DNA of 64,000 bases, from contig CAWCQI010000016.1 of NCBI GenBank assembly GCA_963797625.1, positions 15,128 to 79,127 on the forward strand, in the 5' to 3' direction. A model generated the notes under the pieces. That model did no database searches. It was not told the origin of the DNA and saw only the letters and a program-made list of their open reading frames with translations. Made by a program: the position numbers and the translations under genes. Source of the DNA: an uncultured Acidobacteriota bacterium. Lineage in GTDB: Bacteria; Acidobacteriota; Vicinamibacteria; Vicinamibacterales; 2-12-FULL-66-21. Shown here piece after piece: positions 1-58,769 of this stretch; position 1 is the first letter of the stretch, and the number at the start of each line of letters is the position of its first letter.

Positions 1-597
1 GGCGCCTCAGGGATGACCGACGCGACCCGTGTCGCGATTCTCAACGCGAATTACATCAAGGCGCGGCTCGCCGGTCATTACGAGGAGCTGTACGCCAACC
101 ACAACGGCCGCGTGGCCCACGAGATGATCTTCGACCTGCGACCCTTCAAGCACGGATCAGGGCCGTCGGTCGACGAACAGGACGTCGCGAAGCGTTTGAT
201 GGATTACGGGTTCCACGCGCCGACGGTCTCGTTCCCGGTGGCCGGCACGATGATGATCGAACCGACCGAGAGCGAGTCAAAAGCGGAGCTGGACCGATTC
301 TGCGACGCGCTGATCTCGATTCGGCGCGAAATCCAGGACGTCATCGATGGCCGGGTGGATCCGCGAGACAACGTGCTCAAGAACGCGCCGCACACGGCTG
401 AGGAAGTGTCGTCGGATGCCTGGTCCCATCCCTACACCCGCGAGCAGGCCGCCTATCCGGCGCCGTTCGTCCGCGCCAACAAGTTCTGGCCGGCCGTCGG
501 CCGAATCGACAACCCGTATGGCGATCGGAACCTCGTCTGCGCCTGTCCACCGATTGAAACCTACGTCGAAGCAGATGGGGTTGAGGCGGGACGTTAG
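1..597 (+). CDS. gcvPB: Glycine dehydrogenase (aminomethyl-transferring) subunit 2, C-terminal part; 5' end outside window
   Basis: Open in frame 1 from base 1 to TAG 595-597. The translation ([47 protein letters not shown]) is the conserved C-terminal region of P-protein subunit 2. Confidence 0.9.
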
Positions 598-599
598 GC

Positions 600-736
600 A
601 ATGCTGAATGCTGAGTGCTGAATGCTGAAGTTAAGGGTGAAGAGGGTCGAATTCGGAATTGCCAACTTCGACATTCAGTTAAGGAACTTCTTCCTTGGTC
701 CTTTACTTCAGCATTCAGCACTCAGCCTTCAGCATT
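600..736. repeat. Heptamer-periodic inverted repeat (4 x TGCTGAR arm, 73-nt spacer, mirror arm) between convergent genes
   Basis: Arm 600-631 (aatgctgaatgctgagtgctgaatgctgaagt) matches the reverse complement of arm 705-736 at 31/32 positions. TGA occurs at 605, 612, 619 and 626, covering all three frames. Confidence 0.9.
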
Positions 737-746
737 GGTCGCGCGC

Positions 747-1652
747 TCAGTTCCCAGCGCTCTTCTTTCTAAATCCTTCCAGCAGCTTGCGCGTGACCGG
801 CCCCGGGCGGCCGTTGCCGATCATCTGGTCGTCGATCCGGACGACCGGCGTGAGCTCGCGTGTCGACCCGGTGATGAACGCTTCCTGCGCAGAAGTGAGA
901 TCGGCAGGCGTGAGCGTGGCTTCCTCGACCCGCACGCCGACCTCGCCGCCGACCTCGAAGAGGAACGCGCGCGTCAATCCCTCGAGGAGGCCAGACGCCG
1001 AGCGCGGCGTGAGTGCGACACCGTCGCGAACCAGGAAAAAGTTCGATTGCGCGCATTCCGAGAGTTCGCCCCGGTAATTGCACATCAGCGCTTCTTCGCC
1101 GCCCTGGCGACGCGCTTCCTGCATCGCCAGCGCGTTGTTGAGCAGGTTGTTCGACTTGATGATCGGGTTCACCGAACCAGGATGATTGCGCAGGATCGAT
1201 ACCAGAACGATCTTGATGCCCTCGTCGAACATTCGGGCCGGCGGCTCATCGAAGGGCTTGACGATGATCACGAGCGAGGGCGCCGGTGTCGCGGTCAGGT
1301 CGTAGCTGAGATCGCCGACGCCGCGGGTCAGCAGAATGCGAATGTACGCCTCTTTGAGGGGCGGGATTGGCGGCGTGGGCGTTGACAGCCCGTCGGGCGA
1401 TCGCTCGGCGACGGCGATCGTGTCGTGAATCCAGCCAAGCAGCGTGTCGTCGTCGAACGGAACATCGAGGTGCAGCGCGGCGGCTGACGCGCGGAGTCGC
1501 CGCAGATGTCGATCGTAGAGGAACGGCACGCGGTTGTAGGTGCGGAGCGTTTCGTACACGCCCTCGCCGTACACGAAACCATGGTCGTAGACGGGAATCA
1601 CCGCCTCGCGGGCCGGCGTGATGATTCCGTTGACGTAGACTGCGCCCTTCAC
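747..1652 (-). CDS. ilvE: Class IV (fold type IV PLP) aminotransferase, branched-chain amino acid aminotransferase-like
   Basis: 301-aa ORF with YDHGFVYGEGVYETLRTY, NFFLVRDGVALTP and EAFITGSTRELTPV segments typical of IlvE/Dat-family enzymes. GTG start preceded by GGAGGG. The exact substrate class cannot be resolved by eye. Confidence 0.75.
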   Translation of the reverse strand: MKGAVYVNGIITPAREAVIPVYDHGFVYGEGVYETLRTYNRVPFLYDRHLRRLRASAAALHLDVPFDDDTLLGWIHDTIAVAERSPDGLSTPTPPIPPLKEAYIRILLTRGVGDLSYDLTATPAPSLVIIVKPFDEPPARMFDEGIKIVLVSILRNHPGSVNPIIKSNNLLNNALAMQEARRQGGEEALMCNYRGELSECAQSNFFLVRDGVALTPRSASGLLEGLTRAFLFEVGGEVGVRVEEATLTPADLTSAQEAFITGSTRELTPVVRIDDQMIGNGRPGPVTRKLLEGFRKKSAGN

Positions 1653-1664
1653 TCGCCCTCCGAA

Positions 1665-1746
1665 GCTCTCAGCTATCAGCCGTCAGCTATCAGATTCTTG
1701 TGGTCTGCTGGCTTCTCTGAGAGCTGAGTAGCTGACAGCTGAGAGC
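1665..1746. repeat. Heptamer-periodic imperfect inverted repeat (GCNNTCA units / TGA-bearing mirror units) in a divergent promoter region
   Basis: Arm 1665-1693 is gctctcagctatcagccgtcagctatcag; arm 1717-1746 is ctgagagctgagtagctgacagctgagagc. On the + strand, TGA at 1718, 1725, 1733 and 1740 plus TAG at 1729 close all three frames. Confidence 0.8.
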
Positions 1747-1749
1747 CAA

Positions 1750-1779
1750 TTGACCGCAGTCTAGCACAAGCAGTACGCT
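1750..1779 (+). promoter_or_regulatory. Candidate sigma70-type promoter for nnr (TTGACC-N18-TACGCT)
   Basis: TTGACC at 1750-1755 and TACGCT at 1774-1779, 12 nt before the nnr ATG (1792). This would give a very short leader. The call rests on the motif match only. Confidence 0.3.
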
Positions 1780-1791
1780 CGACCGGAACGC

Positions 1792-3366
1792 ATGCGAGTG
1801 CTCAACACCGAACAGATGCGCGAAGCCGATCGCCGCACGATCGAGGACGTCGGTATTCCGTCGATCGTGCTGATGGAGAATGCCGGGCGTCAGGCGGTCG
1901 CCGCGATGGAAGCGGCGTTCGACGATCTTGCGACCAGCCGCGTCGGGGTGGTGTGTGGCCGCGGCAACAACGGCGGCGACGGATTCGTGATCGCGCGCAC
2001 TCTGGTGCAGCGCGGCATCGACACGGCCGTCTTCCTCCTCGGCAGCGTCGCCGACGTGCGCGGCGATGCGCGGACCAACCTCGAGGTATTGGGCCGGATC
2101 GGCATGACCGTCATCGAGATCACCAACGCGCAGGAGTGGGAGCTCCATTTCAGCGACCTCTCGGACTGCGAGCTGGTGGTCGACGCGATTCTCGGCACCG
2201 GCGTGCGCGGTCCGCTGACGGGACTCCTGGAAACGGTCGTTGCCGATCTCAACGGGCTTGGGATTCCGATTGTCGCGATCGATTTGCCGACCGGCGTGTC
2301 GGCAGACAGCGCGGCGCTCGATGGTCCGGCGATCGAGGCGTCGATGACGGTCACCCTTGGCGCACCGAAGATTCCCCTGATCTTCCCGCCGGCCGACACG
2401 CACGCCGGCGATCTCGTCATTGCCGACATCGGGATACCGCTGCCGCTCTTCGACGAGCTCGAAGGGCCGCATCTCGAGCTGCTGACGCGCGAGCGGATGC
2501 GCGAGATCGTGCCGACGCGCGCCGCCGACTCGCATAAGGGGGATTTCGGCCGTGTCCTGGTCATCGCCGGATCGCTCGGCCGAACCGGTGCGGCGCATCT
2601 ATCAGCGGTCGGCGCGCTTCGGTCGGGCGCAGGCCTCGTCACAGTTGCGACGCCGCGCTCGTGCCTGCCGATCGTGGCGGCAATGGCGCCGGAGTACATG
2701 ACCGAACCACTCGACGAAACGGCGTCGGGCACCGTTGACTTCAGCGCGATCGATCGCGTGCTCGAGATGAACGCCGACGTGATTGCCGTCGGACCAGGGT
2801 TGGGTCAGGCGCCTGGCACGGCCGCGTTCGTCCAGGCGCTGCTCGAGCGCACCGGCGTGCCGATTGTCCTCGACGCTGATGCACTGAACGCGTTCGCAGG
2901 CGAGCCCGACCGCCTGATGGGCCGCGAGGAGGTCGGTGTCGTCATCACGCCGCACCCCGGAGAGATGGCGCGCCTCCTGAACACCTCGATCGAGGCCGTC
3001 CAGCACGACCGACTCCGACACGCGCGTGAGTTTGCCGCCTCCCACCGTGTCGTCGTCGTCCTCAAGGGCCATCGCACGGTCATTGCGGCGCCTGACGGCC
3101 GGACGTTCGTCAACCTGACGGGCAACTCGGGGATGGCGACGGGCGGGACCGGTGACCTCCTGACGGGGATGATTGCCGCGTGGTTCGCGCAGTTGCTCGA
3201 CGCCGAGGCCGCTTGCAAGTTGGCGGTGTACCTGCACGGTACCGCGGGCGATTTGGCCGAGGCCGACGAAGGCGACGTGGCGCTCGTTGCCGGCGACCTG
3301 GCCACACGCCTGGGCGACGCGGTGCTCGAGCTGACGGCCCGGCGGCAGGTGAAGCGCGACTCGTGA
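1792..3366 (+). CDS. nnr: Bifunctional NAD(P)H-hydrate repair enzyme (epimerase / ADP-dependent dehydratase)
   Basis: 524 aa. N-terminal YjeF_N domain (GRGNNGGDGFV) fused to a C-terminal carbohydrate-kinase-fold dehydratase (GMATGGTGDLLTG). Confidence 0.9.
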   Translation: MRVLNTEQMREADRRTIEDVGIPSIVLMENAGRQAVAAMEAAFDDLATSRVGVVCGRGNNGGDGFVIARTLVQRGIDTAVFLLGSVADVRGDARTNLEVLGRIGMTVIEITNAQEWELHFSDLSDCELVVDAILGTGVRGPLTGLLETVVADLNGLGIPIVAIDLPTGVSADSAALDGPAIEASMTVTLGAPKIPLIFPPADTHAGDLVIADIGIPLPLFDELEGPHLELLTRERMREIVPTRAADSHKGDFGRVLVIAGSLGRTGAAHLSAVGALRSGAGLVTVATPRSCLPIVAAMAPEYMTEPLDETASGTVDFSAIDRVLEMNADVIAVGPGLGQAPGTAAFVQALLERTGVPIVLDADALNAFAGEPDRLMGREEVGVVITPHPGEMARLLNTSIEAVQHDRLRHAREFAASHRVVVVLKGHRTVIAAPDGRTFVNLTGNSGMATGGTGDLLTGMIAAWFAQLLDAEAACKLAVYLHGTAGDLAEADEGDVALVAGDLATRLGDAVLELTARRQVKRDS

Positions 3367-3858
3367 GCCGAGATGCCGTCCTGACGGCCGGGGAAGAGGA
3401 GACGGTCGCCGCCGGCGAGCGAGTTCGCCGCGACGTTGCCGCCAGGCGCGGTCGTGCTCCTCTATGGCCAGCTCGGCGCCGGCAAGACGGCGTTCGTGCG
3501 CGGCCTGGCGCGCGGGCTCGGCGCGGCCGCGGACGAAGTGTCCAGTCCCACCTTCACGATCATCCAGGAATACGTCGGCCGCACCGCGACGCTCTACCAC
3601 GTCGACCTCTATCGCCTCGAGCCGGCTGAAGTCGACGACCTCGGTCTCGACGAGCTGGTCAGCGGAGACGGAGTCGTCGCGATCGAATGGGCCGATCGCT
3701 GGAGGGAGCGGCCCGATGACGCAATCGAAGTGACGATCGAAGACCGTGGAGAGGATCGGCGGTCGATCAGAATTGCGGGCCTAAGGCTCAGGGCTCAGGC
3801 TGAAGGCTCAAGGCTCAAGACTCAGGCTCGAGAGCACACTCGATCGATCTTGCTCTGA
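3363..3858 (+). CDS. tsaE: tRNA t6A37 biosynthesis ATPase TsaE (YjeE), with one apparent frame break near 3422
   Basis: YGQLGAGKT, SPTFTI and YHVDLYRL are in frame 1 from TTG 3436. The expected N-terminus (VSRDAVLTAGEEETVAAGER) is in frame 3 from GTG 3363, which overlaps the nnr stop. The ORF has no stop of its own, runs about 26 codons into the repeat at 3781, and ends at the repeat TGA at 3856. Confidence 0.8.
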
Positions 3859-3888
3859 GCCTTGAGCCCTAAGCCTTGAGCCCTGAGC

Positions 3889-3889
<1 letters not shown>
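3781..3889. repeat. Heptamer-periodic inverted repeat (GGCTCAR units) between convergent tsaE and guaB
   Basis: Left arm 3781-3835 (ctaaggctcagggctcaggctgaaggctcaaggctcaagactcaggctcgagagc). Right arm 3851-3889 (tgctctgagccttgagccctaagccttgagccctgagcc). On the + strand, stops at 3856, 3863, 3870, 3877 and 3884 cover all frames. Confidence 0.85.
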
Positions 3890-5415
<1,526 letters not shown>

Positions 5416-8400
5416 TCAGATCCTCAAAAGCCAAGAAGGCAGCAAACAATCTGCTGCCTTCGCTGGTGTTCCCGGTGTGCGGCCTCTTGGCACCCTGGCC
5501 CCTTGGTCCACTGGCACCCTGTTCTTAGACCCATGGCACTTCTTGTATTTCTTCCCGCTGCCACACGGGCAGGGGTCATTCCGGCCGACTTTGGGTTCGT
5601 CGCGCCGCACCTGCTTGACGACGTCGTCGCCGCCGGTGCGGGCGGGTTTTGGTGCTTCGGCGGGCGCGCCAGCGCCGGCGCCGCCAATCGCGCCAAACGG
5701 TGACGGTGGCGGAGCCTGCTGCGCGCTCATCGTTATCTGAGGCGCACGCCTCGGGGCCGGCGCGCGGACGGGGGCGTCGGTCGAGCCCTCGCTGCCGACC
5801 GGCGTCAGCCGCCACAGATACCGGACGATTTCTTCCTCGATCCGGTCCTTCATCGCCTGGAAGAGCGCGAAGCTCTCCTTCTTGTATTCGACCAGCGGAT
5901 CGCGCTGCCCGTAGCCGCGCAGACCGATGCCTTCCTTGAGGTGGTCGAGGCTGTAGAGGTGGTCCTTCCACTGCGCGTCGACGATCTGCAGCATGATGTC
6001 GCGTTCGACGCGACGCAGGATCTCGGTCGGAATCAGCGCTTCCTTGGTTTCGTATTTCTGGAGAACCGGTGTCCAGAAGGCATCGCTGATAGCGCCGGCA
6101 CTCAGCCCCTCGAGCGGGATGCCGTTGAGCGTGTCGGCGTCGAGACCGTAGATCTCGGCGACGGCAGCGGTCAGGGCGCCGTCGTCGCGCTCTTCGGCCT
6201 CGATCTCCTCGCCCGCGTAGCGTTCGACCGTGCTGTCGAGGAGCTCCTCGGCCAGCGTGATCAGGTACTCGCGGCTGTCGACCGCCTCGTCTTCGGTCAG
6301 GTGAATCTTGCCCTCGAGCAGCTCGCGGCGCAGCGCATAGACGCTCTCGCGCTGCTTGTTCATGACGTCGTCGTACTCGAGGAGGTGCTTGCGGACGGAG
6401 AAGTTCTGCGCCTCGACCTGCTTCTGCGCGCGGGCGATGGCGTTGGTCACCATCTTGTGCTCGATCGGCACGCCTTCTTCCATGCCGAGCCGCTGCATCA
6501 GGCCCGAGATGCGGTCGGATCCGAAGATGCGCATCAGATCGTCTTCGAGCGACAGGTAGAAGCGCGACGATCCGGGGTCGCCCTGGCGGCCGGCGCGGCC
6601 GCGCAGCTGGTTGTCGATGCGGCGGGCCTCGTGCCGCTCGGTGGCGACGATGTGAAGCCCTCCGAGGTTGACGACCTCGTCGTGCTCGCGATCCGTCTGC
6701 GACTTGAACGACTGGAAAATGTGCTCGTAGGCCTGCCGCGGCACACGATAGAAGTTGCCCAGGTGATAGAAGTAGACGAACTCCTCGTCGTCGACGAACT
6801 TCGCCTGGTCCTTGGGCAGCTTCTCGGCAATCTGGTCGGCCAGCGTCTGCTGGCGTGCCATGAACTCGGCGTTTCCGCCAAGCAGGATGTCCGTGCCGCG
6901 GCCCGCCATGTTGGTCGCGATCGTGACCGTCCCGCGCCTGCCGGCCTGCGCGACAATCTCGGCCTCCTGCTCGTGGTATTTGGCGTTCAAGACGACGTGC
7001 TTGATGCCGCGCAGCTTCAGCAGTTTCGACAGCCGCTCCGACTTTTCGATCGACACCGTGCCGACGAGCGCTGGGCGGCCCAGCTGCTGCTGTTCGATGA
7101 TGTCGCCGACGATCGCCTCGTATTTTTCTTTTTCGGTGCGGTAGACGGTGTCGGGTTCTTCGATGCGCCTGAGCTCGCGGTTGGTCGGGATGACCATCAC
7201 TTCGAGCTTGTAGATCTTGTGGAACTCTTCGGCTTCGGTGTCGGCCGTGCCGGTCATCCCCGACAGCTTGCCGTACTTGCGGAAGTAATTCTGGAAGGTC
7301 ACCGTCGCGAGCGTCTGGTTCTCGCGCTCGATCTTGACCTTCTCCTTGGCCTCGACCGCCTGATGAAGACCATCGCTCCAGCGGCGGCCAGGCATCAACC
7401 GTCCGGTGAACTCGTCGACGATCACGACGCCGTTGTCCTTGATCATGTACTCGACGTCGAGCTTGAAGAGCGTGTGCGCCCGGAGTGCCTGCGTCACGTG
7501 ATGGAGCAGCGGCATGTTCGTCGGGTCGTACAGCCCGCCCGAACCCGGCACGAGTCGGTGGCTGAGCATCCGCTCGGCCTTGGCCATTCCGGTTTCGGTC
7601 AGCGTGACGGTCTTGTGCTTCTCGTCGACGATATAGTCGCCGGTCTTTTCGAGCTCGTCGCAATCCTCGGCCTTGACGTTCCCCTGCGTGACGGCGCCGG
7701 GCGTCAGCTTCGGGATGATGCGGTCGACCTCGTAATAGAGATCGGTCGATTCCTCGGCTGGCCCCGAGATGATCAGTGGCGTTCGCGCTTCGTCGATGAG
7801 GATGCTGTCGACCTCGTCGACGATGGCGTAGTGGTGACCGCGCTGCACGTAGTGCGCGAGGTCGAACTTCATGTTGTCGCGGAGGTAGTCGAAACCGAAC
7901 TCGTTGTTCGTGCCGTAGGTGATATCGCAGGCGTACGCGACCTGGCGTTCCTGATCGTTGAGGTCGTGCTGGATGACGCCAACCGACATCCCAAGGAACC
8001 GGTAGATGCGGCCCATCCATTCCGAGTCGCGACGCGCGAGGTAGTCGTTGACCGTGACGACATGGACGCCCTTGCCCTCGAGCGCATTGAGGTAGGCCGG
8101 AAGGGTCGCGACGAGCGTCTTGCCCTCGCCGGTCTTCATCTCGGCGATCTTGCCGCGATGGAGGACGATGCCGCCGATCAGCTGCACGTCGAAGTGCCGC
8201 ATGTTCAGCACGCGGCGGCCGGCCTCGCGGACGACGGCAAAGGCTTCCGGAATCAGATCGTCAAGCGTGGTGCCGCCACCGTCGCCGCCGAGCCGCTGCC
8301 GGAATTCGGCGGTCTTCGCGCGCAGCGCGTCATCGGACAGGCGCTGGATCTCGGGTTCCTTGGAGTTGATTTCGGCGACGAACGGCCGAATCCGTTTCAG

Positions 8401-8619: not shown

Positions 8620-8681
8620 GAACCGCGGATCGCACAGATCACACGGACCGGAACCGCGGATAACACAGATCACACAGACCG
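8620..8681. repeat. Two tandem 31-nt direct repeats upstream of the secA promoter
   Basis: gaaccgcggatcgcacagatcacacggaccg followed by gaaccgcggataacacagatcacacagaccg, with 3 mismatches. Confidence 0.85.
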
Positions 8682-8705
8682 GAGCAACGCAATCGGGCAG
8701 CCGCG

Positions 8706-14023: not shown

Positions 14024-14043
14024 CGACGAAGACGATACAGCGA

Positions 14044-14072
14044 CCAGCTGTCAGCTGTCAGCCCTCAGCTGG
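14044..14072. repeat. Heptamer array (GCTGTCA GCTGTCA GCCCTCA) at the 3' end of the TonB-dependent receptor ORF
   Basis: ccagctgtcagctgtcagccctcagctgg. On the - strand this gives three TGA codons at 7-nt spacing, and one of them (14058-14060) is the stop used by the receptor ORF. A weak partner arm, cagctgattgctgatcag, lies at 14121-14138. Confidence 0.7.
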
Positions 14073-17000
14073 ACTGCTAAGGTCCGGTCTACCCGGGCCA
14101 GAATCGAAATTCAGGACGGACAGCTGATTGCTGATCAGAAACGAGAATCGCGTCGCAAACTGGACGATGCGGCCGGGCTGAGCCGAAGTCGACCGGCCAA
14201 ACGTCGCATTGATCATGTTGTTGTCAGGGTTGTTCAGATTGAGCGTGTTGAAGAGATTGAACGTCTCGAGACGGAGCTGTAGATTGCCGTCCCCGCCGAT
14301 CACCCATGGTGTTCGGATCATCTTGGCCAACATCAGGTCGACGTTGAAATAGCGGGGGCGACGGAAGCTGTTGCGTCCGAGCGTACCCGGAAGGCCGGGG
14401 GTCGGGATTGGAAACTCCGATGCGGTGAAGATGCCGGTCAGGAAGTCATCATTCGTGAGGCCGCTCTTCGAGCTCCCGAACGCCGGCACGTTCGGGCGGT
14501 CGTTGCCCGTGAAATTGTCCGCGTTGAAATCGCAGCCGCTGTTGCCGATGATGTTGCCCGAGGCATCGCGGACGGCGATGAACCCGCGATTGATGCAGAC
14601 CACTGAGAACGGCGTGCCGGTTTGCCTGAGCAGCGTCGAGCGATCCGCCAGCCGCCTCCAAGCGCCCGCGCCAGGCCCGACGCCGGGCTCGGCAGTATCC
14701 AGTTGGCCGACATCACGAACTTCTGTCGCACGTCGAAGTCGGCCGGTCCTTTGTCCTGATCGGGCGGGCCGTAGGCATCGGGGCGCCCGGCCGCCGAAAA
14801 CGAGCTGGAATAGTCGGTCGCCTTGCCGAACGTATAGACGCCCCGACTTTGAGCCCCGTGCGATTGACCTTGATGGCCACCGTGCCGCCATGGAACGTAC
14901 TCTGGTCCGTGGACTCGGTGTAGTTGATGTTCGAAAAGCCCGCCAGGATGGGGTCGAATCGCCCGTCCAGCATGTCGCCGTTGAAGCGGTTGATGTCGAA
15001 TTTGCGGTAGGCGTTCTGGCCATGCGAGCCGAGGTAGTCGGCTTCGACGGTAATCTCCCGCCCGACGGCCCGCTGCACGCCCACGAACCAGTTGTCGAGA
15101 TACATGTTCTTGAAATCGGGATCGACGACGTGCACCAGGCCTCGACCGGTGATGAGGCCGCCAGCCTGATTGAGTCCGCCCGTCAAGCCCGTCGGACGTG
15201 GAAAATCGTACGGCATCGAGGTATTCCGGCGAAGGCCGAAGACTGGCCGCACCGTCGCATCGCTGGCCAGAGCGGTCGCGATTGCGAAGCCGGGGAGATT
15301 GAGATGTTCGGAGTCCCAGATCTGGTTCGACATGCGATCGTAGGAGCGACCGAGCCCGCCACGGACCGACATCCTGCCGTCGTTGGCGGGATCCCACGCG
15401 AAGCTCACGCGCGGCGCGAGCGTGTGCTGACCACCGTTCCACAAACCGTCCTCGAGATAGTAGTGCCGCTCGACGACCTGTGCGCCCTGCAGCCGGCGTG
15501 CGAAGGTCGCCCGCCGCTTGTCATCACGATGTTGTCCATGTCACCCGACGTGTCGTAGATGTTCAGGAATGCCTCGTAGCGCAGCCCGAAGTTCAGGCTG
15601 AGGTTTGATCGCACCTTCCAGTCGTCCTGGACGAACGTCGAGACCGACTGGGTGCGGTGGTAGCCGGGTCAGCACCGGCACGCCGCCGCCGGTGCGCGGG
15701 TTCGATCCTGACCTGCGCCTGTTGGCGCGGGTTGTCGTTGGCGAAGTCGAAGACGTTGTTGAAATCGTAGGTCGGGCGATTGTAGGTGCGCGACGAATCG
15801 TTGTCGGCGTGCTCGCGCGTGTACGCGCCGCCGATCTTCAGGTTGTGTGAGCCGCGGGTCCACGTCACCACGTCCCGCCACTCGAAGCTGTTCTGGACGA
15901 ACTCGTTCGGCCCGAAGCCCTGTTGGTATCCGGTCAAGCCGCCGATCGTGATGCCTGGCACTTCCGGATGCGGGTTGGTGAGCTCTGCCGCAGGGACGCA
16001 CCCACGAGAACGACGCCTCATTGAGCAGCGTCGGCGACAGAATCTTGGTGTAGTTCGTGTTGACGTGTGTGCTGCTCGTCGGCGATGGCGCGGTGAACGC
16101 CGGATACACGCTCGGCTCGCCGAAGCCGACTTTGTCCGTGGTCGTGCGGTTGACCGAACCGTAGAGCCGATCGCGCCCGCCGTTGAAGGTGTGATCGATT
16201 CGCGCCGACCACTGCAGACCGTTCGCGTGGAGACGATTCGTTCCAGGTGCCGACCCCGATCACTGGAAAGTCGCAGGGAATCGAACCGATCGGAGAAGTA
16301 ATCGGCGTCGAACCGGAGCAGGATGCGTTGAGGAGCTGCCCGGCCGTGCGCAGGTTGCGGTCCGGCGTGAAGGAGGCCGGAAACGAGTTGGCGACGAACG
16401 TCGACACGTTGTTCGGCCGGTTCTGCTGCATGAACCGCGCGAAGTGCGGGGGTGATGACCGTCGTATCCCGGCTGATCGCGACGTTGGAGCGGAGAACGT
16501 CACCCGAAGCGAAGAAGAACGTGCGGTTCTTACGAGCGGCCCGCCGACTCCCCAGGAGAACTCCTTGCGGCTGAAGTCCGGCGAGTCGTCGTCCGCTCGA
16601 ATTGGTTTTTGGCCTGGAGGTCGTTGTTCGTGTAGAAGAGCTGCCGGCGCCGTGCAGGTTGTTGGTTCCGCTCTTGGTGACGATGTTGACGAGCACTGAG
16701 CCGTTCCGGCCATACTCGGCCGAGAAGTTGTTGACCGAGACGCGAACTTCCTGGACGCTCTCCGTGTTCGGGTTGATGTTGACGACGCCGCTGCGCTGAC
16801 TCGAGCTGACCGTCGACGAGTCGATCAGGAAATTGTTGGACTCGGTGCGCGCGCCGTTCGCGTTCATGTTCACACCGAACTCGTTGCTGTAGAGGTCCGC
16901 GCTGGATTGCGCATAGGCCTGCGTGCCGCCCGTCGCCCGGCCGAGCACGCCCGGAGTGAGCACGACCAGACTGAAAAAGTTGCGGCCGACGAGAGGGAGG

Positions 17001-17443
17001 TCCTTGATTTGACTCTCCTCGATGAGTCCCGACACGCGGCCCTGCGAGGTTTCAATCAGCGCCGCGGTCGCCTGCACCGTCACCTCCTCGGCCGCCGCGC
17101 CGACGGCCATCTGAAGGTTGACGGTTCGTGTCTCGGCGACTTGCAGCTGGATCTGATCCTGGATGACGGTCCTGAATCCTTGCAGGGTGACGCGGACGGA
17201 ATAGAGACCGTTGCCGAGCGACGAGAACCGATAATATCCAGCCTCGTTCGTGGAGACGTTCTGCACCGCGCCGGTCTCCTTGTTGGTCAGCGTCACTGCG
17301 GCGGCCGGCACCACGCCCCCGCTCGAATCGCTGACGGTGCCTTCGATGGCGCTGGCAAATTGGGCGTCGGCGCGCGGGACGCCGACGAGGAGGATCGCCA
17401 GGAGGAGAGCAGCTCTGCCCGCACTTGGTCGTTGGGTCTTCAT
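14058..17443 (-). pseudogene. TonB-dependent outer-membrane receptor with N-terminal CarboxypepD_reg domain, heavily frame-disrupted (about 10 breaks)
   Basis: Signal peptide MKTQRPSAGRAALLLAILLVGVPRADAQ; CarboxypepD_reg domain (IEGTVSDSSGGVVPAAAVTLTN..YYRFSSLGNGLYSVRV); plug and barrel segments (GARTESNNFLIDS, HNLKIGGAYTREH, terminal GRIVQFATRFSF). These are spread over ORFs 15593..17488, 16018..16713, 15669..16109, 15405..15614, 14713..15444, 14438..15442 and 14058..15023. Confidence 0.8.
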
Positions 17444-30568: not shown

Positions 30569-31145
30569 GACGCCGGCCGGCGGGCGACGCGCGCGCGGTT
30601 GGCTGCTCGGCGTGCTGGGTGTGGCGCTCGTGGCGCTCGTGGCGTACCAGATGTGGCCGGACAACTCGGCCGCGCTGCCGGTCCCGGCGTCCAATCGGAG
30701 GGCGCCTGCGGGCAGAGCCAGCGCCGCCGCACGCGAGGAACTGGATCCGGCCGAGCTGAAGGTCAGGCTGGAGGCGCTGGAGGCGAAGCGGCCCGACTTC
30801 GACGCGGGCGATCGGAACCCGTTCCGGTTTCAGCCGCCGCCGGCGCCGCCGCCACCGAAGCTGCCGCCGGTTCAGGAGCCGGTCGTGCCAGTCGGACCAC
30901 CGTCGCCGCCACCGCCGCCGCCGATTCCGCCGATTACGCTGAAGTTCATGGGCACGGTGGAGCGGCCCGGGTTACTGCTGGCGGCGTTGACCGATTGCAA
31001 GGGATTCTCGTACGCGGCACGGGAAGGTGAAATCGTCGATGGCCGGTACCGGCTGGTCAAGGTCGGTCTCGAGTCGGTGATTCTGGAATATTCCAACGGC
31101 ACGGGCCGAACCACCGTCCGAAAGAGTGGAGACTGCCCGAAGTAG
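30558..31145 (+). CDS. PilP-like pilus assembly protein (TM anchor, Pro-rich linker, beta-domain)
   Basis: 195 aa. N-terminal TM segment, PPPAPPPPKLPPVQEPVVPVGPPSPPPPPPIPP linker and a C-terminal ITLKFMGTV..AREGEIVDGRYRLVKVGLESVILEY domain. It sits between pilO and the secretin. Confidence 0.65.
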   Translation: METETPAGGRRARGWLLGVLGVALVALVAYQMWPDNSAALPVPASNRRAPAGRASAAAREELDPAELKVRLEALEAKRPDFDAGDRNPFRFQPPPAPPPPKLPPVQEPVVPVGPPSPPPPPPIPPITLKFMGTVERPGLLLAALTDCKGFSYAAREGEIVDGRYRLVKVGLESVILEYSNGTGRTTVRKSGDCPK

Positions 31146-31206
31146 GAGCTAGAAGCTGGAAGCTAGGAGCTAGACGCTCAGAGCTGGAAGCCGGAAGCCG
31201 GAAGCT
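31144..31206 (+). repeat. Nine tandem heptamers (RGRAGCY) filling the whole pilP-pilQ intercistronic spacer
   Basis: aggagct agaagct ggaagct aggagct agacgct cagagct ggaagcc ggaagcc ggaagct. The array starts inside the pilP TAG and ends 2 nt before the pilQ ATG (31209). There is no inverted partner. Confidence 0.9.
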
Positions 31207-31208
31207 GA

Positions 31209-35530: not shown

Positions 35531-36863
35531 ATGCTAGCACAACCCAGATTCGCGAGGGGTCGACGTCGTCGCCCTGCCGCTTGCCGCCGCGCTCATGTTC
35601 ACTTCGGCGTGTGACAAGGTCCCGCTCCTCGCGCCGGGCGGGACCGTCATCTCGATCTTTGCCACGGCGAACACCGTGCCCGTGAACGGCGAGATCGAGA
35701 TCGTGGCCACGGCGATCGAAAACGGCACGACTTCGACGCCGACAACGCCGACGACCCCAACCACGCCGGGAACCCCGACCACGCCAACGACGCCCACGAC
35801 GCCGACCTCGACGTCGACCTCCGGCGCTGGAACACCGGTGCAGAACGGAACGGTCATCACCTTTACGACGACGCTCGGGCGGATTGAGCCGGTTGACGCG
35901 CGCACCAACAACGGCCAGGTCCGCGTGCGGTTCATTTCTTCGGGCCAGAGTGGCGTTGCGACGATCACGGCGTTCTCCGGAGGCGCGTCAGCCAAGCTCG
36001 AGAATCTCCGCGTCGGTACAGCCGCGGCCGAGCGCGTGCTGCTGAGCGCGACGCCAGCGGTGCTACCGCCGTCGGGTGGCACGACCGAAATCGCCGCGCG
36101 GGTTGAAGACACCACCGGCGCCGGGCTGCCAGGCGTTCCGGTCACGTTTACAGCAGATCAAGGGTCTCTCGGTGCCGGGACCGTCCTGACCGATTCGAAC
36201 GGCGTCGCCAAGACGAGTCTCCAGGCGACGCGCACGACAATCGTCACTGCGAATGTTGCGGGCAAGACCGCGACCGTCACGGTCAATCTCAACGCGCGGA
36301 CCGGCGTGAGCATCACCGGGCCGACGACACCGATTTCTGCCGGAACACCTGTGACCTTCACCATCGGGGTCGGAGCGGCACCGGCAATTATTCGAGACGT
36401 CACGGTCGACTTTGGCGACGGCGCGCGAAGCTCGCTCGGATCGCTCAGCGCGTCGACGCCGGTCCAGCACGTCTACCTGGCGGAGGGCACCTATAGGGCG
36501 TCCGCGACCGCAACCGACTCGAGCGGCTTCACCGAAACCGTCGCGACGTTTGTCACGATCCTGCCGCAGCAGCCGCCGAGCGTAATCATCCAGGCCGCAC
36601 CGACCAACCCGGTGCCTGGACAGACGGTTATCTTCACGGCGGTCGTGTCAGGCGCGACCTCCACGATTCTCCGCTACGAGTGGCTCTTCGAGGGCGGAAC
36701 GCCCGCATCGGCTACGACGACCGGCAACCGCCAGACCGCCACGTTCACTGGCACCGGCACGAGAGTCATTCAGGTGAGGGTCATCCAGTCGCAGGGTCCG
36801 TCGGGTGATGGCACGACGGTCATCACTCTGCAGTCCGGTGGCGGCGGCGGAGGAGTCCGCTAA
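35531..36863 (+). CDS. Surface lipoprotein with Thr/Pro linker, Big-like and PKD-like Ig domains; apparent frame break in the signal peptide (near 35568)
   Basis: ATG 35531 gives MLAQPRFARGRRRR. The next frame gives ALPLAAALMFTSAC (lipobox) and is continuous with ORF 35595..36863. The ORF contains TSTPTTPTTPTTPGTPTTPTTPTTPTST, Ig-like repeats (VTFTADQGSLG..TDSNGVAKT) and a PKD-like FGDG..H.Y...G.Y segment. Confidence 0.7.
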
Positions 36864-36879
36864 GTCACCGGTCCACTGT

Positions 36880-36936
36880 GGGGTCAGATCTCGATTTTCT
36901 CCCTCCCTGCCGGGGAGAAAATCGAGATCTGACCCC
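36880..36936. terminator. Bidirectional terminator hairpin (24-bp perfect stem, 9-nt loop) between convergent genes
   Basis: ggggtcagatctcgattttctccc / tccctgccg / gggagaaaatcgagatctgacccc, followed by ggtttgtttg. Confidence 0.8.
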
Positions 36937-43629: not shown

Positions 43630-43708
43630 CTGACGTCCGTCGGCGCCCGCACCGGCGGGCAAGTCGCGTACCTTACTCCGCAGACCAGAGAGTGTCAAAC
43701 CATGTCGA

Positions 43709-43867
43709 GGTTCGTGGTTCAGGGTTCGACGTTCCGGTTCATGGTTCAGGTTCATGGTTCGGATACGAGACCAATCGCCGAACTGCACTTGAACCCTGGA
43801 TGCCGAACGTTGAACCCTAGAACCACGAACCTTGAACCATGAACCTAGAACCACGAACGATCGAACC
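43709..43867. repeat. Largest heptamer-periodic inverted repeat (about 8 GGTTCRN units / about 11 NNGAACC units) in a divergent promoter region
   Basis: Left arm 43709-43762 (ggttcgtggttcagggttcgacgttccggttcatggttcaggttcatggttcgg). Right arm 43789-43867 (ttgaaccctggatgccgaacgttgaaccctagaaccacgaaccttgaaccatgaacctagaaccacgaacgatcgaacc). On the + strand, stops at 43790, 43811, 43818, 43833, 43840 and 43846 cover all frames. Confidence 0.9.
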
Positions 43868-43903
43868 AATAAGGGCGTAGTACACTCGTCTTCACTCACC
43901 GTT

Positions 43904-58593: not shown

Positions 58594-58646
58594 GGCTCAG
58601 GGCTCAGGGCTCAGGGCTCAGGCTCGGCTCAGGGCTCAGGGCTCAG
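58594..58646. repeat. Direct heptamer array: GGCTCAG x4, gctc, GGCTCAG x3 (no inverted partner)
   Basis: The units are perfect. On the - strand this reads CTGAGCC x7, giving TGA in all frames between parB and lptFG. Confidence 0.9.
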
Positions 58647-58769
58647 GGCTTGCTCGGCTCGCTAGCTGCTCGCACGTCCGCGGCTCCGGTCGTTCGCGGG
58701 GTTCGCAGCTCGAGCGAGTTGGCCGCGCGCAGATGCAACCGCGCAACAGCGAGCCGCCGAGCCGCGGCG

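Follow-up and report, generated by a model that had tools for sequence, protein, structure and literature searches.

Hairpins with heptanucleotide-array arms at gene boundaries of an uncultured Vicinamibacterales bacterium: a probable family of dispersed, fast-changing intergenic repeats

The spacer between the convergent gcvPB and class-IV aminotransferase genes of an uncultured Acidobacteriota bacterium of the order Vicinamibacterales, at positions 599-737 of a stretch of 64,000 nucleotides (hereafter the window; G+C = 65%), is filled by an inverted pair of short arrays of the heptanucleotide TGCTGAA, and six further loci of the window carry arrays of the same period. The question raised by this locus is whether such arrays are a dedicated signal at gene ends or copies of a repeat. 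A first-pass annotation, made from the sequence alone, had proposed a combined hairpin terminator and three-frame translational insulator, on the grounds that the units contain stop codons and that a period of seven carries them through all reading frames. The analysis described here favours a different reading, to which a probability of roughly 0.6 is assigned, namely that 599-737 is one copy of a dispersed, multi-copy, fast-turnover family of intergenic hairpin repeats in the Vicinamibacterales, the arms of which are short heptanucleotide arrays, and that the six other loci represent sister families with other units (GGCTCAG, GCTNTCA/AGCTGGA and GGTTCRK). The parts of the element, hereafter the prototype, are as follows.

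599-636, no strand assigned: left arm, C-AATGCTG four times (units in the order A,A,G,A) followed by AAGTTAAGG; starts 2 nt past the gcvPB stop
637-699, no strand assigned: internal segment, two small stem-loops within the large hairpin, partly made of degenerate heptamers
700-737, no strand assigned: right arm, reverse complement of the left arm; ends 9 nt short of the aminotransferase stop

The prototype element and its copies at unrelated loci

Tandem Repeats Finder (TRF) reported period 7 in both arms of the prototype (600-629, 4.3 copies, 91% matches; 707-736, 4.3 copies), each arm being made of about 4.3 copies of TGCTGAA, and an inverted-repeat search delimited arms of 38 nt (599-636 and 700-737) that are 95% complementary and separated by 63 nt, for a total of 139 nt (G-CAATGCTGAATGCTGAGTGCTGAATGCTGAAGTTAAGG, 63 nt, then CCTTTACTTCAGCATTCAGCACTCAGCCTTCAGCATTG). 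The shorter description in the first-pass annotation, with 32-nt arms, one mismatch and a 73-nt spacer, is correct in its coordinates, as are the TGA starts that it placed at 605, 612, 619 and 626 of the plus strand and the distances to the flanking stop codons. To the left stands the gcvPB stop TAG (595-597), which closes the C-terminus of glycine dehydrogenase subunit 2 (Pfam GcvP2_C, E 1e-57), and to the right the stop (747-749) of the minus-strand class-IV aminotransferase (Pfam Aminotran_4, E 3e-55). The segment 598-738 has a predicted folding energy of -78 kcal/mol (z = -10.5 on the plus and -12.4 on the minus strand), equalled by none of the 200 shuffles, and both strands are predicted to form a single long stem with a small three-way junction; folded singly, the arms reach just -3.1 and -1.6 kcal/mol.

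The closest relatives are metagenome-assembled genomes (MAGs) of uncultured Acidobacteriota / Vicinamibacterales (subdivision 6), with aminotransferases of up to 94% amino-acid identity; look-ups of the exact aminotransferase and LptF/G proteins found none on record. The prototype arm (CAATGCTGAATGCTGAGTGCTGAATGCTGAAGT...) was found again at unrelated loci of at least 7 other Acidobacteriota MAGs, in some of which the internal sequence matches as well. Nine Acidobacteriota copies (L038, L048, L058, L068, L099, L108, L123, L136 and L144; loci and contigs other than the window are cited by such numbers) have in common the C of the first unit (CAATG), four units in the order A,A,G,A and the continuation AAGT(G/T)AA, as well as a mirror-image right arm ending in CATTG(C). 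The motifs TTCGGAATTGCC, CTTCTTCCTT and CCTTTAC of the internal segment 637-699 are shared with L123 and the motif ATTGCCAACTTCGA with L048, both of these being non-orthologous loci in other genomes. The copies range from 72 to 149 nt in length, with conserved arms, a variable interior and the termini GCAATG...CATTGC. Judged by these shared bases, the TGCTGAA copies of the Acidobacteriota are clearly homologous and not convergent. The genome of the closest relative (MFD05747.bin.3.242) contains at least 7 TGCTGAA sites, and some 8-kb loci carry two hairpins.

An exact search with TGCTGAATGCTGARTGCTGAA, in which each species was represented by one genome, returned at least 117 genome loci with (TGCTGAA)3, and the phyla among the matches listed include Acidobacteriota, Lentisphaerota, Verrucomicrobiota, Planctomycetota, Chloroflexota, Bacteroidota, Cyanobacteriota, Chlorobiota and others. 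An inverted partner array lies within 300 nt at 38 of the 125 (TGCTGAA)n sites listed, the corresponding figure for shuffled-unit controls being 0-1.

A comparable recurrence was found for the GGCTCAG family. The irregular 25-nt junction GGCTCAGGCTCGGCTCAGGGCTCAG of the window array at 58594-58650 is present, base for base, at two further, non-orthologous places: in L155 (the same as L029) it sits in the IMPDH spacer of another species, and in L154 at a third locus, the loop of which resembles 3830-3850 of the window. Since the TGCTGAA and GGCTCAG arrays share idiosyncratic irregularities at unrelated loci, they were copied and not grown afresh at each site. The AGCTGGA and GGTTCRK units were also found again at non-orthologous spacers, the unit alone recurring in these two families, and GTTCGTG hairpins similar to that at 43705-43868 occur at another spacer (L008 and L031). 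The statement of the first-pass annotation that the loci do not share their unit sequence is consequently wrong at the scale of the genome, where the TGCTGAA and GGCTCAG arms recur at unrelated loci, and its contention that the arrays are unlike the known REP/BIME elements is contradicted by the return of the prototype arm, sometimes with internal sequence, at unrelated loci and in other genomes.

Some neighbouring repeats were observed in the course of these comparisons. A second TGCTGAA array is present in the gcv cluster of close relatives about 3 kb beyond the aminotransferase gene (L002 8983-9013, L003 8974-9003 and L029 9051-9076), at a place that would fall just past the left end of the window. 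A distinct REP-like palindrome, GCTTCCGCCTTCAGGCGGAAGC, occurs by the aminotransferase or IMPDH genes in the Vicinamibacterales relatives L011, L017, L021, L022, L024 and L031, sometimes beside heptamer arrays. Lentisphaerota MAGs (L037, L052, L057, L059, L090, L118, L135 and L151) contain a composite dispersed element, (GGGGCGA)n-(AATGCTG)n-GAGGCGCATTTC-(ATAATTC)n-GTTAGGGGCGA, in many copies per genome and sometimes in tandem.

Period 7 outside coding DNA and turnover between strains

The frequency of tandem periods was examined in the window together with 34 syntenic loci of related genomes (406 kb in all), with genes called by a codon-usage model trained on the window. Perfect self-match runs at lag 7 numbered 18 in intergenic and 2 in coding DNA, those at lag 8 numbered 5 and 0, and every remaining lag from 2 to 21 yielded about 0-1. 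TRF identified 80 period-7 arrays, 60 of which lie in the 13.5% of the sequence called intergenic, and the "coding" arrays with at least 3 copies are mostly situated at the ends of open reading frames (ORFs). Among the intergenic tandem repeats of this lineage a period of 7 predominates, and the arrays are largely kept out of coding sequence except at ORF ends. The second commonest intergenic period is 8, and the orthologous aminotransferase-gcvPB spacer of L016 (~5920-6010) holds an inverted pair of period-8 arrays (CAGGAGTT...).

The loose TCA/TGA core noted earlier is real. CTGA/TCAG is the top enriched 4-mer of the units, found in 15 of 58 as compared with 4.3 expected (about 3.5-fold), although the units are not phylogenetically independent. 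Exact three-unit arrays were found in 12 viral contigs each for TGCTGAA and GGCTCAG, the counts for four composition-matched controls being 1, 3, 7 and 3.

The six additional loci reported for the window are likewise genuine period-7 arrays; in TRF all seven loci have period 7 and between 3.9 and 8.7 copies. The TRF spans of the six are those of the arms or arrays listed below, with 43820-43868 as the span for the right arm of the large hairpin.

1664-1746, minus strand: GCTNTCA / GCTGAxA hairpin, arms 1664-1693 and 1717-1746; fold z = -5.9 (minus strand) and -4.3 (plus strand)
3783-3890, no strand assigned: GGCTCAR hairpin, arms 3783-3829 and 3856-3890; fold -75/-77 kcal/mol, z = -8.4/-9.2
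14045-14071, minus strand: CAGCTGT array (CAGCTGA on the minus strand), 3.9 copies, overlapping the stop codon (14058-14060) of a gene for an outer-membrane beta-barrel
31147-31207, plus strand: AGCTGGA direct array, 8.7 degenerate units, no partner, no structure; fold z = -0.4
43705-43868, no strand assigned: large GGTTCRK hairpin, arms 43709-43760 and 43788-43868; fold -81 kcal/mol, z = -10.5
58594-58650, minus strand: GGCTCAG direct array, 8.6 units with an irregular GGCTCGGCTCAG junction, no partner; minus-strand fold not significant (z ~ -0.4)

At least five unit families are present within the 64 kb, each of them occurring at several loci in relatives (as counted on loci and not on whole genomes). 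The arrays total 635 nt, that is about 1% of the window DNA and about 5% of its intergenic DNA.

Empty sites and strain alleles were obtained from contigs that code for an IMPDH identical to that of the window. Five such metagenome contigs share 96-98% overall DNA identity with the window; the 300 nt flanking the IMPDH-tsaE element are 95-99% identical, whereas the element itself is only 65-72% identical. A hairpin starts at the IMPDH stop codon in the window and in L001, L002, L003, L007, L008, L025 and L029 (z <= -7), and its units vary by genome (GGCTCAR, GGCTCTN, GGTCTTT/AGAGACC, GTTCGTG and AAGGCAG). Both arms change in concert at the orthologous spacers, so that the potential to form a hairpin persists. 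Owing to the array, the length of TsaE varies from 138 to 181 aa among strains. The element at 1664-1746 similarly exists as two allele types, GCTNTCA and GCTTCCA, the arms of which switch together and the distribution of which is incongruent with that of the flanks.

Entire elements are also gained or lost. L159 and L001 lack the prototype and read ...ACCGCGC-AGGTGGC-CGCGGCG..., and L157 has the element at exactly that point. In this single filled/empty pair (L157 against L159/L001) no target-site duplication was found; 7 nt, AGGTGGC, are replaced by the element and 3 nt. The edge of the prototype is accordingly a boundary of presence and absence (L157, L159), and as L157 continues past the element into DNA unlike the window's, the end of the element is also the site of a synteny breakpoint. 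In L161, which is 99% identical, an unrelated 24-nt spacer stands in place of the 59-nt AGCTGGA array. No longer parent element with the same ends was found among the loci examined, in which arm pairs 0.4-6 kb apart proved to be separate small hairpins, and the loci from pattern matching that were compared with the window in search of empty sites showed no overlap with it.

Another length difference between these strains concerns the SecA-IMPDH spacer (5424-5511), which is about 87 nt longer in the window than the 20-nt spacer of four identical-IMPDH strains. The extra DNA consists of degenerate GGGTGCCA-like repeats, a hairpin GAAGGCAGCAG...CTGCTGCCTTC and then a T-rich tail; AAGGCAG is an array unit also in L014 and L025.

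Gene context, folding and stop codons

The gene contexts of the seven loci, established from Pfam matches and the gene map, comprise two convergent, two divergent and two co-directional spacers and one ORF end. The hairpin at 1664-1746 is flanked by the divergent aminotransferase and NAD(P)HX epimerase/dehydratase genes, and that at 3783-3890 by the convergent tsaE (plus strand) and IMPDH (minus strand) genes, the IMPDH stop (3889-3891) adjoining the array. The array at 31147-31207 fills the co-directional spacer between a pilus-operon gene (stop ~31143-31145) and a secretin gene, 43705-43868 separates the divergent SIS-domain (minus strand) and MoxR AAA+ (plus strand) genes, and 58594-58650 is flanked by two minus-strand genes, parB (stop 58770) and lptF/G (start 58413).

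The common hairpin architecture claimed for the seven loci holds at five of them, where very stable hairpins are predicted (z -4.3 to -12.4). Besides the prototype, 1664-1746, 3783-3890 and 43705-43868 are strong and 14045-14136 is weaker, the inverted partner of the array at 14045-14071 being poor (14113-14136, 79%; z = -4.5 for 14040-14140 on the minus strand). It does not extend to 31147-31207 and 58594-58650, which are plain direct arrays without partner (z ~ -0.4). A consensus scan of 400-4100 gave no intrinsic terminator at the arrays, and no T-run follows any array. Rfam returned no match at the gathering score over the whole window, and at an E-value threshold nothing meaningful in 500-4000, the sub-threshold matches being limited to miRNA-precursor hairpins at 3793-3888. 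A regular-expression scan for G-quadruplexes found the canonical motif, at least four G3 tracts joined by short loops, at none of the seven loci, TGCTGAA being devoid of GGG, and an explanation by G-quadruplex formation was rejected for that reason.

On the aminotransferase-sense strand, 1664-1746 is located between a conserved extended -10-like box, TGCTAGACT (1759-1767), and a GGAGGG Shine-Dalgarno sequence (1656-1661), which would place the hairpin in the 5' untranslated region (5'UTR) of the aminotransferase mRNA in the clade of the window. The box lies about 8-10 nt from the aminotransferase start codon in distant relatives (L004, L014, L017, L024 and L033), which suggests leaderless mRNA there; in the clade of the window, about 100 nt of hairpin and GGAGGG separate it from the GTG start (1650-1652).

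The frame arithmetic of the first-pass annotation is right, as a TGA-bearing unit closes the three frames within 21 nt, or three units, and there are genes that end in this manner. The TsaE ORF crosses the left arm of its array and ends at the right-arm TGA 3856-3858, the Pfam match ending at residue 110 of 140; the ORF of the outer-membrane protein ends inside 14045-14071, at the second array TGA; and in L002 and L157 the own TGA of the aminotransferase has become TCA, and the ORF is slightly lengthened (by 6 codons in L002) up to a TGA of the array. On the strand that reads TCA there is no insulation, TsaE being translated for about 25 codons into its array.

Taken as a selected function, this closing of frames fails in three respects, of which the lack of insulation on the TCA-reading strand is one. 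Among the 58 non-redundant units of the window and its relatives, 26 contain a stop on either strand and per-unit shuffles 21.8 (P ~0.10), so that the composition-matched shuffles reveal no enrichment, an outcome that the first-pass annotation had itself named as refuting its proposal. Orientation was assessed on the 125 (TGCTGAA)n sites listed, from which those single arrays were taken that follow a long ORF closed by its own stop before the array is reached; 12 were stop-sense and 10 antisense (P = 0.83), and hence no stop-sense bias exists behind genes. A first count of 22 versus 7 was dropped because TGA-sense arrays automatically truncate spurious ORFs. Seven being coprime to three, a unit vocabulary rich in CTGA results in three-frame stop coverage by itself, and the three-frame stops look like a side effect of the 7-base period and not like a selected function. 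The closing of frames may in turn account for the tolerance of arrays flush against gene ends and for their occasional supply of a stop.

The remaining observations concern other features of the window and the strain contigs. The large outer-membrane-barrel gene (14058-17443, minus strand) is split in the rough gene map into 14058-14603/15023, 14713-15444 and 15593-17443, and split genes are also seen in strain contigs (aminotransferase in L157, Carb_kinase in L158), possibly because long-read assemblies contain frameshift errors. A 31-nt tandem repeat of 2.1 copies (GAACCGCGGATAACACAGATCACACAGACCG; 8620-8683), unrelated to the heptamer arrays, is found in the spacer upstream of secA, and just past the ORF end at 36863 lies an inverted repeat of 24 nt (36880-36936), perfect and not heptameric, the halves of which (GGGGTCAGATCTCGATTTTCTCCC / GGGAGAAAATCGAGATCTGACCCC) enclose a loop of 9 nt.

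Origin, relation to known repeats and significance

The best reading of these data, at the probability given at the outset, is that of a REPIN/MITE-like heptameric repeat family in the Vicinamibacterales that is remodelled by slippage, and the data fit intergenic repeats of a selfish or near-neutral kind. The arrays would be expanded and contracted by replication slippage, a process that earlier authors proposed to be favoured for 7-nt units; recombination or conversion between copies, or a mobilising activity acting in trans, would spread and swap them; and intrastrand template switching or selection for pairing may maintain the complementarity of the arms. In a transcript, an element would present a stem-loop of some 35 bp, placed either immediately after a stop codon or within a 5'UTR. 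By analogy, such a stem-loop would most plausibly act like a REP/BIME hairpin, as a 3'-end barrier, a terminator without a U-tract or a processing site, and the function of the arrays, if they have any, is probably that of a transcript-end or UTR stem-loop.

Several observations weigh against this interpretation. Two loci of the window are single arrays without structure, and about 18 more distant relatives have no hairpin in the IMPDH spacer, where it is dispensable. No mobilising enzyme was seen among the 8-13 kb pieces of relatives, no whole-genome protein search having been made, and with neither an enzyme nor a parent insertion sequence nor a target-site duplication, recombination and transposition are not separable. 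Neutral slippage alone predicts neither the enrichment of CTGA units nor the 2-10x excess of TGCTGAA and GGCTCAG over controls in viral contigs. The RNA-level role is purely inferred, and the strand asymmetry of G.U pairs, by which the IMPDH-sense strand is the more stable in 8 of 8 related genomes and the 5'UTR element in only 5 of 9, is a weak and only suggestive sign of selection on RNA.

The hairpin terminator and three-frame insulator of the first-pass annotation has in its favour that arrays abut stop codons and form strong stems, that CTGA is enriched in the units, and that array TGAs supply the ends of tsaE and of the gene for the outer-membrane protein and also, in L002 and L157, of the aminotransferase gene. 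Hairpins and frame closing thus stand, but a dedicated, selected role appears improbable in view of the stop content, which does not exceed that of shuffles, the even orientation behind genes, the reading of tsaE into the TCA strand of its array, the location of two loci in divergent spacers, one of them a 5'UTR, the two loci lacking a hairpin, the lack of U-tracts and the absence of the element from near-identical strains with no apparent consequence. Somewhat less credence is given to purely local slipped-strand microsatellites, grown in place from a chance heptamer duplication with neither copying nor function. Unit numbers do differ between strains, most window loci have different units, and a period-7 excess has been reported across bacteria and ascribed to polymerase slippage; yet the same irregular unit order and flanking bases, and sometimes the same interior, recur at unrelated loci and in other genomes, inverted partners are far more frequent than in controls, and strains that are 99% identical differ in whether they have a degenerate 8.7-unit array, which is not what recent expansion of identical units would yield. 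Local slippage is already contradicted in the case of the TGCTGAA and GGCTCAG families.

A true non-autonomous transposon of the MITE/REPIN kind, moved in trans by a dedicated enzyme that recognises heptamer-array ends, would account for the sharp termini, the size, the conserved ends around a variable interior, the several copies per genome (sometimes two within 8 kb) and the insertion polymorphism. It is nonetheless considered unlikely, though not negligibly so, as 7 nt were replaced and not duplicated at the sole filled/empty pair, no longer element with the same ends occurs among the loci examined, neither the internal palindrome nor the GTAG/CGTC tag of REPs is present in the arms, and the same type of spacer also swaps to unrelated sequence (L161), which looks like allelic recombination. 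A binding array for a protein with a 7-nt register is also improbable: CTGA/TCAG is enriched in the units, TGCTGAA and GGCTCAG arrays are commoner than their matched controls, and the TAACTGA repeats of the Beggiatoaceae, proposed as protein-binding sites, have the same CTGA core, but only 15 of 58 units contain it, many unrelated units (AAGGCAG, GGTCTTT, TCCTGCC and others) occupy the same spacers, arrays are gained and lost between near-identical strains, and no candidate protein is at hand. A HutP-like RNA-binding register of 7 nt, a CTG site for primase and roles as Chi-like or restriction sites were weighed too and set aside. A broader and quite speculative proposal unites CTGA-core heptamer-array hairpins into one cross-phylum class, copied to gene boundaries by an enzyme or binding protein that reads a 7-nt register, whose members would include TGCTGAA here, TAACTGA in Beggiatoaceae, cyanobacteria and Bacteroidetes, and related units in Lentisphaerae, Planctomycetes, Verrucomicrobia and Chloroflexi. 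If true, it would define a new non-autonomous mobile or punctuation element with microsatellite ends and also account for the excess of heptanucleotide repeats that has long been noted in bacteria. An assembly or sequencing artefact has next to no probability; the window may come from a long-read assembly, and no support for an artefact was found, the same elements being present in many independent MAGs from differing projects and assemblers (k141/k127 short-read and long-read contigs, JGI, ENA).

Repetitive extragenic palindromic (REP) sequences, with the related BIME and REPIN, are high-copy extragenic elements in which two inverted conserved modules, with a spacer conserved less well, make up a hairpin of ~100 nt near gene ends; roles in mRNA 3' stabilisation and termination have been proposed for REP/BIME, and REPINs are tied to RAYT transposases. 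The repeats favoured here as REPIN/MITE-like resemble them in their inverted conserved arms, variable interiors, length of 72-149 nt, dispersed extragenic distribution and folding (z = -10 to -12). However, each REP module is an imperfect palindrome with a GTAG/CGTC tag, and the arms here are untagged direct heptamer arrays that do not fold by themselves. Bacterial MITEs (miniature inverted-repeat transposable elements), such as Correia elements, are small, non-coding and dispersed, have terminal inverted repeats and can supply stops, promoters and terminators. The prototype shares with them 38-nt terminal inverted repeats in a total of 139 nt, the lack of coding capacity, dispersed copies and insertion polymorphism, but differs in showing no target-site duplication (in a single pair) and no visible parent insertion sequence, and in having microsatellite-like ends that change in copy number.

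Heptamers are also known as tandem repeats, those of cyanobacteria, termed STRR, having reportedly been described by Mazel et al. in 1990. In many bacterial genomes no class of long simple-sequence repeat is commoner than that of heptanucleotides, for which polymerase slippage has been suggested (Mrazek et al. 2007, as summarised in PMC4679880), and long 7-nt repeats are, as far as such summaries go, intergenic, excluded from coding regions and variable in length. The tandem 7-nt units, the period-7 excess outside coding DNA and the polymorphism between close strains observed here agree with that class; the accounts of it, to the extent that they are summarised, deal with direct arrays and slippage and do not cover paired inverted arrays acting as discrete dispersed elements. 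The TAACTGA direct repeats found in marine Beggiatoaceae and in some Cyanobacteria and Bacteroidetes are intergenic, have 2-6 units and a patchy cross-phylum distribution, and their author observed that the forward orientation gives stops in all frames (MacGregor 2015; PMC4679880). They resemble the present arrays in their stop codons, CTGA core and position flush against gene boundaries, but comprise 169 direct sets and one inverted set, for the most part placed directly upstream of start codons, each genome having a single unit (PMC4679880); here, inverted pairs dominate and the positions are 3' ends, 5'UTRs and operon spacers.

The closest described analogue of the prototype, matching it almost point for point, is formed by the pairs of GGGAATC repeats in Xanthomonas. 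These and the GGGGAYT repeats of Nostoc are intergenic tandem heptamers, mostly of about 4 units; in Xanthomonas, each genome has 70-75 inverted pairs from which stem-loops can form, with a strong bias to positions less than 50 bp from, or overlapping, a stop codon, and the positions are conserved between species, length and sequence vary, and no link to insertion sequences exists (Rehm et al. 2015; PMC4692102). Xanthomonas and Nostoc have a single G-rich unit per genome, which has been read as G-quadruplex-forming (PMC4692102), whereas several unit families without a canonical G-quadruplex coexist here, along with idiosyncratic arms at unrelated loci and presence or absence between 96-99% identical strains. 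A literature search found no description of such elements in Acidobacteriota, and no Rfam family corresponds to them.

On present evidence, the arrays are not a new regulatory device. They belong to a known but poorly understood kind of repeat; to our knowledge, neither the preference for 7 nor any function has been established for heptanucleotide repeats. What is new is the lineage, the Vicinamibacterales, dominant in soil and barely studied, together with the several unit families that coexist in it. The arrays of this lineage indicate that G-quadruplex potential is not the common denominator of heptamer repeats, and that such arrays behave as discrete, copied, hairpin-forming elements and not purely as local microsatellites. 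Between near-identical strains they rank with the sequences that change fastest; protein C-termini (TsaE), 5'UTRs and operon spacers are altered by them, and they mark the site of a synteny breakpoint. In practical terms, ORFs that overrun arrays are a source of annotation errors, and the arrays are useful strain markers. The main interest lies in copied elements with extreme turnover at the level of strains and in the recurrence of CTGA-type units across phyla. By way of cultured relatives, the arrays also offer a tractable entry to the question of why the period is 7.

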